The notes below the pieces were generated by a model. It saw nothing but the letters and a program-made list of their open reading frames with translations. It did not search any database and was not told where the DNA came from. Source: Eledone cirrhosa (lineage: Eukaryota). Taken from it: a stretch of DNA of 64,000 bases. This document shows, in pieces, positions 23,064 through 54,668 of the stretch; position 1 is the stretch's first letter; each line of letters opens with the position of its first letter. The stretch spans positions 284,952,001-285,016,000 of the forward strand of contig OZ024741.1 of assembly GCA_964016885.1 (NCBI GenBank), written 5' to 3'. The position numbers were made by a program, and so were the translations under genes.

Positions 23064-23348
23064 ATAAGTATGTACACGTACATACATATATGTATACCGA
23101 CGTACAGTAGTATGTATATATATATATACATACATGCACACATATATATATGCACGTATGGATTCACCGAACATTTATTATAATGTATATACATACTACT
23201 GTACGTCGGTATACATATATGTATGTACATGTACATACTTATATTTAAGTAACAGCCGTACTAAGAGTGGGAAATGAAATATCGTTTCATTTTTTCCGTT
23301 TATCGTTTTCGGTGCACCCGGCCGATTAACCCACTCGATATGCAAATT
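23064..23348 (+). mobile_element. Retrozyme-like family R1, partial copy with inverted segment
   Basis: Homologous to 47685-48111 and 53828-54668; inverted arms 23064-23120 and 23186-23242. Confidence 0.75.
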
Positions 23349-24253
23349 TAGATTGAGAATAATGGAATGTAAAATAGGAAAATATAAAGAACATTTTTTA
23401 TCCTCCCATCTACCTCTTCTCCTCCCTTTCTATGCCTTACCCATTTCTATTTTCCAGTCATATTATTTCCTTCTAACTGCTAGCCTGCATAGACGCAGCC
23501 ACCATTTGTCAAACAAAATGAAGCGATACGATAGGAAATAAATGATAAATGGTTGGATGAGTCCCTGCCAGCTATAACAAACATAAATTGAAATTTTTAA
23601 AGCGTTTCATTAAAATAAATTTAAGAATACGCATTTGAAAAGATAATGAAAAATTATCATTATTATTATTTTCTTTGGTCTGTCAAGACGCATGTGGATA
23701 TCGCTCCGTAAGTGTTGTTATCTTCAAGTGTTTACATTGCACTCATTGTTATATTATATTTTTGTTACAAACTGTTAATAAGGTGCCACAAATTACCCTG
23801 TGTTAAGGCGAACCCATAATATTTGAGCCTTGGGTCCAAATATTTGGACTTTAAATTGTTTTTACAAATAATTTTTCGTTTATAAAATATGGACAGAATA
23901 CGACCCCTCTCATTGAGCCAGCTGTCACTGACAGTGACTCCAGTGTTGAGGCGAATAGCGCCGCCCCTCCCACAAAAATGTTCAGCTGTAACACCACACT
24001 GGGCAGTATCGCTTACACCAACACCAACAACAGCGACAACAGCACCAACAACAATTGTCAGTTTTCGTTTTTGTGTGAACCAGCCAGCCAACGATCCATC
24101 AAACATTTCTCTTTTATATTATGTATAGATTACTTGTATGTATAGACGTCTAGCATTTATTCAGTACATATAACTCTTCTACATTTGATTTGAACTCAGA
24201 GGAAACAAGCACCAACGAGCATTTGACCATTTCATATAAAGCACCTAGCATAA

Positions 24254-25362
24254 TCTATACTATAAAGCTGACGGCCGTGTGTAGGTAACAAACTTCCCGC
24301 CAAACGGCTGGACCAAACAGCACCAAATGTGCACCATAGATGTAACTTTTTCCAAGTAAGAAAGTGAGGGTATTTTTGTCTACTGAATTTTGTTAAAAAC
24401 ATTATTTAAATATTCACTTCTTTAAAATTTCAAATGTCATCACTTCCGGTTATACGTCATTCCTCATTTCTTCTCACGTCGCACAACATTCCTCTCTTTT
24501 TCTTAGTCTGTCTTTTTAGATAGATACATAGCTATAACGTAGCGCCCTTATAATATGTCTCTGTATGTCTGGCTGTCTGCATTAGATAACGCTTTTCGAA
24601 ATATTTACTTCTGCGTTCACAGACGGATTTTTTTAGTTTCAGAAGATCCCGTTAAGAGTGAAAGCAGCGATTCTTTGCTTAAACTTTAATCTGTTATTTT
24701 AATATATATATTCGTGTACAGATATTTTTGCATACACAAAAACAAAAACCTATTTATTTGACGAAAGCACAGACGGCTTATCGTCATTGTTACTGTTCGA
24801 GGTTAGAGGACTACAGTCTTTCCAAGATCTGAGAACCATCAATGGCCATCAATGTTCCAATTACCGTTTGGCTTGCCAGATGCGTAGTATGTTAGACGAT
24901 GACAGCCATTGGCACCTCACCCTGCAAGAAGCAGCAACTGCTAAAGTCCCTTCTCAACTGCGAAAACTTTTTGCTATTATGCTGCACAACTGCGATCTCG
25001 CCGACCCTCTCGCACTGTGGAACAACCATCGTGAAAGTCTAGCTGAGGACGTCCTCCACCACACACGCAGACACAATCCAAACGTAACATACGATGTCGT
25101 TTTCAATGAGGCGCTCATTTGTCTTGAAAACAGTGTCCTGGAGATTGGAGGTAGGCCTCTAAGTCACTACAGCTTACCTGCTCCTGACAGGAGTGCCCAG
25201 AGGTCAACGTCTACAGAGCTTCTCTGCGAGACGAGCTACGAAATCAGTGATTCTCCCATGGTCAATTGTATGCAGGATGCTCTAGGGAGAGCTCGCCAAA
25301 CAATCTCTTCATCTTTGCTCCGGAGGGCCGAACAAAAAATATTGTATACTCTGAGGCTCTAA
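24254..25362 (+). mobile_element. Helitron remnant with RepHel coding fragment (24787-25240); 3' end not defined
   Basis: 5' A|TCTATACTATAAAG; VRG..SF.DLRT.NG, ACQ...L.DD..W..TL.EA, P.QLR.LFA.ML..C....P..LW match the Rep-to-helicase linker of Helitrons. Confidence 0.85.
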
Positions 25363-26529
25363 CAATGTAATTTAAATATTTTCTGTTACTTGGAATTTCC
25401 ATTATAGTTGTACAAATTATTGTTTGTTAAAACAATTGTTCTCTGTTCAGTCTTTATTGTTGTAACTATCAATTTTCTTTAACGTACTGGCTGCTGAACT
25501 GGGGAATCCTAAAAACTATTCAAACCCAACATCAGAGCACGTTAACCCCCCCTCCCCCACGCACACACACCTCTCGCTGACTTGAGAGGGCGTGCGGTAT
25601 CTTTGTACTGAAAAGATAAAATGCCGGTATACCTAGCTGGGCGCCAGCCGGACGGTCGAGGGTCTATATATCATAAATATCATTACGTCGGCATAATACA
25701 TTTCTAGTTACATTAACAATTTAATTTTCATAGAACAGGGCCTTCCAGCAATTGCTTTGAATTGTAACGTCGTCAATGTTTGATGCTACAAGAAATATAT
25801 ATTTTTGTAAGTAAGACAATAGAACCGTGTGGAAATGGAAGCACCAATTGAAACATAAGTTTTAAATCTCCGAAGCCGTTTATGAAAGTATTGAAGAAGA
25901 AAAGAAAACACACTTCGATCTTCCGACGTGGAAGAGGCTCCTATCAGAAGAAACCGTCACCGAATCATCATTTTTCTTACCTCTTGTACAAACCTGGCTG
26001 GACACAGAACACTGCACAAACATTCTAATAGTTCTATAGAGTTATGAAATAATACATATGAAGAAGCCATAGATGACGAACATCATTAAGTAATGTCAGT
26101 TTCGTGAGGAGATAAAACGCCTCCATTCTTTTGAAGGAAAAAACAAAAAAAATGAGTATAAATCCTGGAAAACTGTAAGTCCGGTATTGAAAAAAAAAAA
26201 AAAATCACCAGGGATTGACACTCCAAATTCACTATTCTCCTTTTACTTTGCTCCACTTTTCAAATTAAATGACACGACGGTTCAGTTATATTCAAATATT
26301 GTAAGCGCGTCCATTGAGAATATCGTCTATGGCAAACTGCTCAGTTGCTCGCATGTGTGCGTGCTGAACTCTGGGTCTTTCCGCTGGGAACAACCCCTTG
26401 TTTTCTCCCGCCCCCCTTATTTTGTGTACATCCATCCACTCATTCATTTACTGCCATTCTACCTTCCTGTGTCTCCCCCTCCATGCAGCCCCTTTTCGCT
26501 CTCGTTTTCTGGCACCTCCATATATATAT

Positions 26530-53510: not shown

Positions 53511-53581
53511 ATTTGAAGACTAAAATGCAAAGAAGGCTCAATAAGGATAAATATATATCAGATATATAAGAACCGTAGAGC

Positions 53582-53737
53582 AAATATTTATTAAAATAAC
53601 AGATTAAAGTTTAATCAAAGAATCGCTGCTTTCACCCTTAACGGGATCTTCTGTAACCCAAGAGTTTCAGAAGATCCCGTTAAGAGTGAAAACAGCGATT
53701 CTTTGCTTAAACTTTAATCTGTTATTTTAATAAATAT
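53582..53737. repeat. Short fold-back of a dispersed terminus also found at 24587-24708, 47428-47450 and 51592-51712
   Basis: Arms share CAGAAGATCCCGTTAAG.GTGAAA.CAGCGATTCTTTG.TTAAACTTTAATCTGTTATTTTAATA. Confidence 0.8.
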
Positions 53738-53827
53738 ATATTTATATGTATATATATATATATATATATATATATATATATATATATATATATATATATA
53801 TATATATATATATATATAAGTTGAAAT

Positions 53828-54668
53828 AAAATGAAAACGAAATTTCATTTCTCACTCTTAGTACGACACTTACTTAAATGTAAGTATGTGTGTATACGTA
53901 CATACATATATGTATACAGACGTACAGTAGCATGCATATATATATATATATATATATATATATATATATATATATATATATATATATATATATATATACA
54001 TATAGGTACACATACATATATGCACGTATCAGTTTAGCGGACGCTTATTATAACGCCGCTTTGTTCGTTTGTAAACAAACTGAACAGCCTGAATTTTTAT
54101 GCCGGACGGTGTTAAGGCAACCACGTCACCTTTTTGTTCAACACTGACACAGGAACGATGTACTAGTTTCAAGCTTGTTAGCTATCATCAGCACCGTATA
54201 CCCACCTGCCAGATAGTTGAACGTTCGAAAGTATATACTTTCCTTATGAAAATTAACGGCTGAGCAGCCTAATTTGCATATCGAGTGAGCTAAGTCGGTC
54301 AGGCATTAGCTCACTCGTTAATTTTCATAAGGAAAGTATATACTTTCGAACGTTCAACTATCTGGCAGATGGGTATACGGTGCTGATGATAGCTAACAAG
54401 CTTGAAACTAGTACATCGTTCCTGTGTCAGTGTTGAACAAAAAGGTGACGTGGTTGCCTTAACACCGTACGGCATAAAAATTCAGGCTGTTCAGTTTGTT
54501 TACAAACGAACAAATCGGCGTTATAATAAGCGTCCGCTAAACTGATACGTGCATATATGTATGTGTACCTATATGTATATATATATATATATATATATAT
54601 ATATATATATGCATGCTACTGTACGTCTGGATACATATATGTATGTACGTATACACACATACTTACAT
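53828..54668. mobile_element. Retrozyme-like family R1 fold-back with twin hammerheads (54155-54197 minus, 54377-54419 plus)
   Basis: ACGGTG-CTGATGA-TAGCT-AACA-AGCTT-GAAAC-TA-GTA-CATCGT; arms 53878-54258 and 54316-54668. Confidence 0.88.

Follow-up and report, generated by a model that had tools for sequence, protein, structure and literature searches.

A non-LTR retrozyme family of Eledone cirrhosa with Penelope-type footprints at its insertion ends

Metazoan retrozymes that lack long terminal repeats (non-LTR retrozymes) have been published for mussel, corals and salamanders, and a link to Penelope-like elements (PLEs) was proposed in the discussion of that work (PMC7229834). Li, Clavereau and Pollet (2026) described tandem units of 51-972 bp with a type I hammerhead ribozyme and also proposed PLE machinery (bioRxiv 10.64898/2026.07.22.740005). 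Among endonuclease-bearing (EN+) PLEs, inverted structures carry a 30-40 bp tail on one arm (PMC8557442; PMC3846280), and in Poseidon_Ac this tail lies between two internal start sites for the reverse transcriptase (RT), both target strands being nicked and extended (PMC11167929). Non-autonomous Chlamys elements occur in tandem, and most Chlamys elements have no canonical hammerhead (PMC8557442). The route of animal retrozymes back into the genome is an open question, for which a PLE helper is only proposed (PMC7229834; bioRxiv 10.64898/2026.07.22.740005). Here, we analyzed a hammerhead repeat without open reading frames (ORFs) in a 64,000-nt stretch of the octopus Eledone cirrhosa (OZ024741.1, positions 284,952,001 to 285,016,000; hereafter the window), which an earlier note had picked out as a candidate circular-RNA retrozyme. 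The window sits on contig C2 of a 3.0 Gb genome.

The repeat is real, and its sequence places it in an ORF-less non-LTR retrozyme family with a predicted type I hammerhead. We lean towards the reading, with modest confidence, that it is copied in trans into (TA)n by the RT/GIY-YIG endonuclease of a PLE, most likely of the Hydra clade, from what is likely a circular monomer RNA. The class is already known; new here are this family and the PLE-type end footprints on a retrozyme. No report of a PLE tail on a retrozyme, of the end-pairing rule described below on a retrozyme, or of an octopus retrozyme was found in literature searches of listings, abstracts and selected papers, which is not proof of absence.

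Like the retrozymes of PMC7229834, the family consists of ORF-less, low-GC tandem units with one type I hammerhead each and a highly self-paired predicted circle; it has thousands of copies, and PLEs occur in the same genome. Its units are longer (404-587 nt, against about 170-400 nt there), and a weak, dimer-type hammerhead is predicted where the invertebrate hammerheads of that study are efficient. RNA forms were shown in that work, whereas the present family is known, and classed, from DNA alone, where it has all the features of non-LTR retrozymes. Among RNA runs none was listed as holding the sequence, and one raw run labelled as another organism gave 0 reads, which does not bear on expression; small shares in contigs from three other organisms were left aside. 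The main text of PMC7229834 does not contain the words microsatellite, inverted or target site. The evidence in bioRxiv 10.64898/2026.07.22.740005 is co-occurrence and homology to PLE pseudo-LTRs (pLTRs), mainly in vertebrates, with the mechanism left open; ours is the anatomy of junctions, and no pLTR homology was found with the one Hydra family examined.

An exact 33-nt hammerhead core pattern matched the genome 23,477 times (12,083 + 11,394), while its reversed control gave 0 matches, and a 30-nt inner motif occurred 34,598 times. The family occupies at least 0.2% of the 19 Mb sampled. It is young, since the best 40 of 762 genome candidates are 98-100% identical to the copy near 54 kb of the window. 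Two subfamilies, A and B, share 82% identity across an alignment of 420 bases. Genomic arrays at the first 60 loci hold the units head to tail, and each subfamily closes on itself in this way. Excision from one core to the next gave 53 monomers, partly from loci that overlap, with lengths of 457-587 nt for A and 404-454 nt for B. The spread in A reflects a long inner (TA)n of variable length, a feature of that subfamily; B has only a short TA-rich palindrome. The longest arms reach 7.5 units. The GC content is 36-37%, and the longest stop-free frames (51-157 codons) differ from unit to unit. A rare and very young third family, C (L213 / L246, G000:C1 163.57 Mb), has a 470-nt unit 61-64% identical to A and B; it keeps the core, the helix III loop, an octamer-like motif, the domain layout and both ends, and differs in helix II. 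Its arms are nearly identical to each other and end at the two sites described next. As a genomic parasite the retrozyme family of A and B is abundant yet ordinary, and it makes a good genomic test case for retrozyme movement.

The best evidence on mechanism is a pair of fixed 3' ends, sites 1 and 2, together with a rule that assigns one of them to each arm of a fold-back. Ends were scored in 55 regions defined by the first 100 matches to the 30-nt motif (contig C1, 0-19 Mb), a position-ordered sample that is unbiased by score and requires the exact motif. Of 87 arms, 42 have their 3' end at site 2, 32 at site 1 and 13 elsewhere, although the site windows cover just 5-9% of the unit. The sites lie about 60 nt apart (71 in family C) and flank a 9-bp hairpin; they share 2-3 bases with the (TA)n flank and do not fall within the inner (TA)n run. 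Sixty-one of the 74 site-ending arms continue into (TA)n, and 5' ends are scattered. The sample holds 27 head-to-head fold-backs and 0 tail-to-tail ones. In all 16 fold-backs with both ends resolved, one arm ends at site 1 and the other at site 2, a result with a probability of about 1e-5 if the arms were independent. A second set of 101 score-selected loci, after exclusion of 19 overlapping or non-family loci, gave the same pairing in 31/34 resolved fold-backs; its 2 tail-to-tail pairs have their ends at neither site. Single-arm loci end at site 2 in 18/25 cases.

Fixed 3' ends, an optional tail, variable 5' truncation and a tail on one arm make up the Penelope "tail" signature. The resemblance to EN+ PLEs (PMC8557442, PMC11167929 and PMC3846280) extends to partial tandems, a head-to-head inverted copy, a (TA)n target and a hammerhead upstream of the 3' ends. 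The family differs from those elements in having no ORF, a longer tail (60-70 nt, against 30-40 bp in the others), a unit that forms a closed loop of 0.4-0.6 kb, and tandems of 7 or more units. It offers base-exact, countable PLE-type insertion footprints on a retrozyme, and the one-arm-each rule constrains how PLE inverted structures form. Snap-back from one centre was considered as a general route to fold-backs and set aside, as the two arms have equal 5' positions in just 2/27. These data support the earlier note's proposal of fold-back integration in (TA)n and its view that a Penelope-like RT likely mobilizes the repeat. Its description of the insertions as circularly permuted is misleading, as 3' ends are fixed and 5' ends alone vary, and it had missed both the two ends and the rule.

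In the window the family is represented by three homologous non-coding insertions, of subfamily A at 54 kb and subfamily B at 23 and 47.7 kb, with the following features.

23057-23185, minus strand: subfamily B arm in a small fold-back, covering positions about 93-219 of the unit, stopping at site 1, without hammerhead
23172-23349, plus strand: subfamily B arm, unit positions about 142-319, without hammerhead, stopping at neither fixed site
Within 23172-23349, plus strand: site 1 at 23243, tail hairpin at 23271-23292, site 2 at 23303, octamer-like motif at 23340-23347
47683-48036, minus strand: subfamily B arm of 0.85 unit that crosses the predicted cleavage site; site 2 end (tail present) into (TA)n
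47952-47982, minus strand: predicted type I hammerhead core, N7 = C, with the predicted cut between 47952 and 47951
48033-48114 (start approximate), plus strand: short inverted subfamily B arm with a site 1 end and no tail, into (TA)n
53816-54306, minus strand: subfamily A arm of nearly one unit, from position 322 round to 311; site 2 end into (TA)n
53816-53878, minus strand: tail of about 62 nt from site 1 to site 2, with a 9-bp hairpin at 53829-53851
53936-54004, no strand: inner (TA)n, tip of a long palindromic hairpin, whose length sets the subfamily A unit length
54161-54191, minus strand: predicted type I hammerhead core of the left arm, N7 = U, with the predicted cut between 54161 and 54160
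54272-54279, minus strand: octamer-like motif ATGCAAAT, kept in subfamilies A and B and in the distant family C
54307-54668, plus strand: inverted subfamily A arm from which 25 nt are deleted close to the 5' end; site 1 end and no tail, into (TA)n
54383-54413, plus strand: predicted type I hammerhead core of the right arm, within the extended stem I (about 54352-54438), with the predicted cut after 54413

The 47.7 and 54 kb copies obey the one-arm-each rule, and the right arm of the 23 kb copy ends at neither site. Hammerhead cores of retrozyme copies occur only at +54383, -54191 and -47982. The earlier note had placed the three insertions about correctly and quoted strings that are present, and the 23 kb copy does extend past the end of the 54 kb copy into a match of its start. 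The 23 kb copy has no hammerhead core, and the left arm of the 54 kb copy ends at 53816, some 12 nt beyond the boundary of 53828 that the note had given. The circle drawn in the note is a composite of two subfamilies, since the 23 kb copy belongs to B and the 54 kb copy to A; closure itself holds for A and for B separately. The idea that the unit carries its own microsatellite is right for A and fails for B. The description as an ORF-less hammerhead tandem repeat stands, with tandem multimers in genomic arrays and no stable coding frame.

Other fold-backs lie nearby. An unrelated small one at 53547-53775, which also matches 24588-24711 and 51546-51710, shares a (TA)n tract with the 54 kb retrozyme. 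The fold-back at 9511-11531 has a different hammerhead (-9606, +11436), and one of its arms ends about 100 nt beyond the other, following the same two-end rule. That at 49492-50625 has, on each arm, a hammerhead of a third type (-49558, +50558).

Core pattern and helix pair counts identify the retrozyme hammerhead as type I with an extended stem I, one per unit. Across 71 copies, one per locus, 95.2% of helix cells are paired. The stem I swap reported in the earlier note is common, with U-G in 33/71 and G-U in 31/71 aligned copies. Two-sided change occurs at only 4/28 helix pairs, and shuffles reach as much in 241/500 trials; since the copies are also related, covariation within A and B is modest. 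The note's statement that the core varies at N7 alone holds for the catalytic core, where N7 is the only position with variants in more than 2 loci (9/60 and 6/45 loci in the two subfamilies); a loop II position varies too. Rfam listed no hammerhead among 150 of its 213 matches over the window, those being TA-repeat artefacts, and gave 0 matches at the gathering score on 4 retrozyme loci, so that the assignment rests on the consensus core and its pairing.

In helix III a single A-U pair closes a loop with the palindrome CUAG, and at the base of helix II stands a U-U. The former resembles axolotl HHR_Amex1 and the latter HHR_Amex2, ribozymes that cleave poorly alone and well as dimers (PMC7229834). 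By analogy, we infer that the predicted hammerhead depends on dimers. A search for the helix III pattern with another helix II base gave 273 matches; the 30 retrieved comprised 25 family variants, 2 from a family C insertion and 3 unrelated sequences, none of them an abundant PLE sharing this helix III loop.

The predicted circular folds of the unit are more stable than 40 dinucleotide shuffles (z = -5.95 and -5.56), the palindromic TA region contributing. In an alignment of 8 monomers, 27/130 predicted pairs show two-sided change, many owed to the family C sequence alone. A footprint of A-to-I editing was not seen (A>G 48 versus T>C 54 among 551 rare variants).

Two further readings, in which the unit is a mere pLTR belonging to a protein-coding Penelope element or a DNA satellite whose spread involves no RNA, seem very improbable to us and are largely refuted at the loci sampled. 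A relationship between Xenopus retrozymes and PLE pLTRs has been described (bioRxiv 10.64898/2026.07.22.740005), and a protein search found Hydra-like coding fragments in the flanks of 18/175 retrozyme loci. These fragments, however, come from several families in either orientation, and 0 of the 7 flank junctions inspected has the pLTR-ORF position. Read-through beyond site 2 leads back into the unit in 82 cases, and none of the 55 unbiased loci has a coding frame in pLTR-ORF position, so that the unit is not, as the earlier note allowed, always the pLTR of a coding element. The 27 frames of at least 130 codons within 400 nt of an arm at these loci lie in either orientation; by eye they resemble RTs of long interspersed nuclear elements (LINEs), pieces of Hydra elements or frames open by chance. 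Against a DNA satellite, fixed 3' ends with scattered 5' ends and changes at paired bases argue for an RNA-templated element.

One locus, L040, was considered as a chimeric retrozyme-Hydra insertion. Its junction has a 4-nt overlap, yet we read it as a retrozyme inserted into an older element: the closest dispersed relatives of the Hydra part match it at 88% identity, the retrozyme unit differs by 2-3% from its own nearest, and a 95% Hydra copy nearby retains the upstream frame without the retrozyme.

To look for a helper, the genome was searched with a GIY-YIG fragment of the window, which brought up a family that is large and young, the 150 candidates scored (of 62,788) being 86-100% identical. 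Hydra-type PLE frames of 860-930 codons, up to 931 (L191-L195), are open in this genome. Nine long loci show, by eye, RWR (RWK-like), DKT and CxCX5C motifs, a C-terminal GIY-YIG domain, a hammerhead and (TA)n flanks. They have two 3' ends about 100 nt apart, and 4/4 of their fold-backs have one arm at each end. This candidate fits the Hydra clade by motif, not by tree, following the criteria in PMC8557442. Pfam gave a weak GIY-YIG match on the window (E 3e-4) and no useful match on a full Hydra-type frame. At site 2, both retrozyme and Hydra ends follow, by eye, a hairpin and a U-rich linker ending in UUAU; about 13 AT-rich bases at that place are common to subfamily A and one Hydra variant, a stretch too short for homology. 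In a BLAST of the monomers against 39 Hydra-type loci, the matches listed were all either retrozyme insertions in their own right, TA matches or an AT-rich match of 18 nt (E 0.49).

A different mover, either another PLE clade (Neptune, Naiad, Poseidon) or a LINE, acting on a circle or a multimer, appears improbable to us. The tail and inverted copies are common to all EN+ PLE clades (PMC8557442), (TA)n is also a Naiad target, and the one Hydra family examined in depth shares no sequence with the unit. Hydra elements here are nevertheless abundant, young and intact, with the same target and end geometry, and the Naiads of cephalopods have been reported as old remnants. The tail is described as unique to PLEs (PMC11167929), which speaks against a LINE.

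The RNA template can be approached through the predicted cut site, which is crossed by 46/74 arms; 28 arms are longer than one unit. Of 74 5' ends, 1 lies within 5 nt of the cut and 7 within 12 nt, versus 4.2 expected. With arms crossing the cut and no pile-up of 5' ends at it, cleaved linear monomers are not the usual template. Divergence within an insertion is lower than between loci (0.028 versus 0.068 in A; 0.051 versus 0.086 in B). Excluding 13/206 segments that were more than 10% divergent, lineage variants within insertions were fixed 67 times and mixed 33 times in A (214 mixed expected), and fixed 32 times and mixed 25 times in B (87 expected). The two arms of an insertion carry one uniform haplotype. 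With 0 mixed-lineage arrays in 40 multi-unit loci by eye, a jump of the RT from one monomer template to a different one was rejected. The crossing of the cut and the single lineage per insertion together indicate that the template is a circle or an uncleaved multimer.

We favor the predicted circle over the multimer, with a clear but not strong preference. It would explain both single-lineage insertions and long arrays from short donors. PLE-driven insertion from an uncleaved linear multimer, with a hammerhead that is weak, late or only a binding structure and with array length regained by unequal exchange of DNA, is possible, though on balance unlikely. It accounts equally well for read-through and for the absence of 5' ends at the cut, and a multimer read from a uniform array would also yield single-lineage insertions; in vitro, uncleaved RNA is the dominant substrate in Poseidon_Ac (PMC11167929). 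The count of cores seen varies among segmental duplicates of a single insertion, which shows that arrays change at the DNA level. Daughter arrays from a multimer could, however, only get shorter without a step that multiplies units, and the lineage variants shared by all units and both arms suit a one-unit bottleneck. The hammerhead core is also kept in three families, and related mollusc retrozymes accumulate mostly as circles (PMC7229834).

The favored reading, a circular template copied by a PLE enzyme, would proceed as follows. Retrozyme arrays would be transcribed, and the hammerhead, with its 1-pair helix III and palindromic CUAG loop, would cut mainly as a double hammerhead in multimers. 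The extended stem I would keep the monomer ends together for a host ligase to close the circle, in which the lone weak hammerhead may re-cut poorly. A PLE protein would then bind the tail region and nick both (TA)n strands. Each nick would start reverse transcription at an internal position of the RNA, one of them at site 2 and the other at site 1. The RT would cover 0.1-7 units on its way round the template, after which a few shared bases or TA filler could join the pair of cDNAs, producing the fold-back.

A more specific proposal, which we put forward tentatively and as somewhat short of an even chance, is rolling-circle reverse transcription of a ribozyme-made RNA circle by a Hydra-clade enzyme. 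Here the strict end pairing would reflect one protein dimer priming both DNA strands at two internal RNA start sites, with the fold-back made in one event, and the conserved tail hairpin would be a minimal signal for writing any RNA circle into TA repeats. Since the family has two sites at which the RT is predicted to start, and the same genome offers a candidate helper whose frames are intact, the question of how retrozymes re-enter the genome could be put to an in vitro assay of an existing type (PMC11167929).

Several observations weigh against the favored reading. The predicted hammerhead has two weak features, the 1-bp helix III and the U-U at the base of helix II, and only 1/9 Xenopus dimers cleaved in vitro (bioRxiv 10.64898/2026.07.22.740005). 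The one-arm-each rule is broken by 3/50 resolved fold-backs, and 13/87 arms terminate at neither site. For subfamily B, mixed variants (25) are nearly as many as fixed ones (32). There is no sequence homology between the unit and the one Hydra family examined, whose tail is about 100 nt against about 60-70 nt in the retrozyme. Finally, Poseidon_Ac mainly uses uncleaved RNA and goes on inserting when its hammerhead is mutated, so that a circle is not needed for read-through (PMC11167929).

The motif ATGCAAAT is called octamer-like here. An internal promoter of the small nuclear RNA (snRNA) type in the unit was considered by analogy with newt satellite 2, an idea for which literature searches gave no source. 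It was rejected for U2: the upstream regions of 3 U2 genes have no octamer, the canonical form being absent within 320 nt upstream of the 3 genes checked, and their alignments with the unit gave AT-rich noise only. Tandem U2 snRNA arrays were seen at L146-L160 (contigs C3 and C13), with a period of about 2.2 kb on C3. Elsewhere on C3, L234-L240 (G000:C3 89.3-90.3 Mb) are segmental duplicates of one retrozyme insertion with an older Hydra copy, and array content differs among them.

The window also holds further mobile elements. A 5'-truncated Hydra-type PLE at 17231-19483 (plus strand) comprises the GIY-YIG end, a 1.6 kb 3' region, a hammerhead at 19298 and a tail that runs as far as its site 2 in (TA)n. 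The 73 nt at 49360-49432 exactly repeat the 3' part of the Hydra hammerhead and terminate at the Hydra site 1, and the end of another PLE endonuclease forms a fold-back at 48340-48857. More PLE-like GIY-YIG fragments were recognized by eye at 6416-6859 and 32657-33067, where Pfam gave no match. A 219-codon frame at 24703-25362 is Helitron-like by eye, with no Pfam match. LINE-type RT frames (Pfam RVT_1) occur at 12278-14674, 27115-28680 and 40419-42105, the first being an unbroken frame of 798 codons with zf-RVT.

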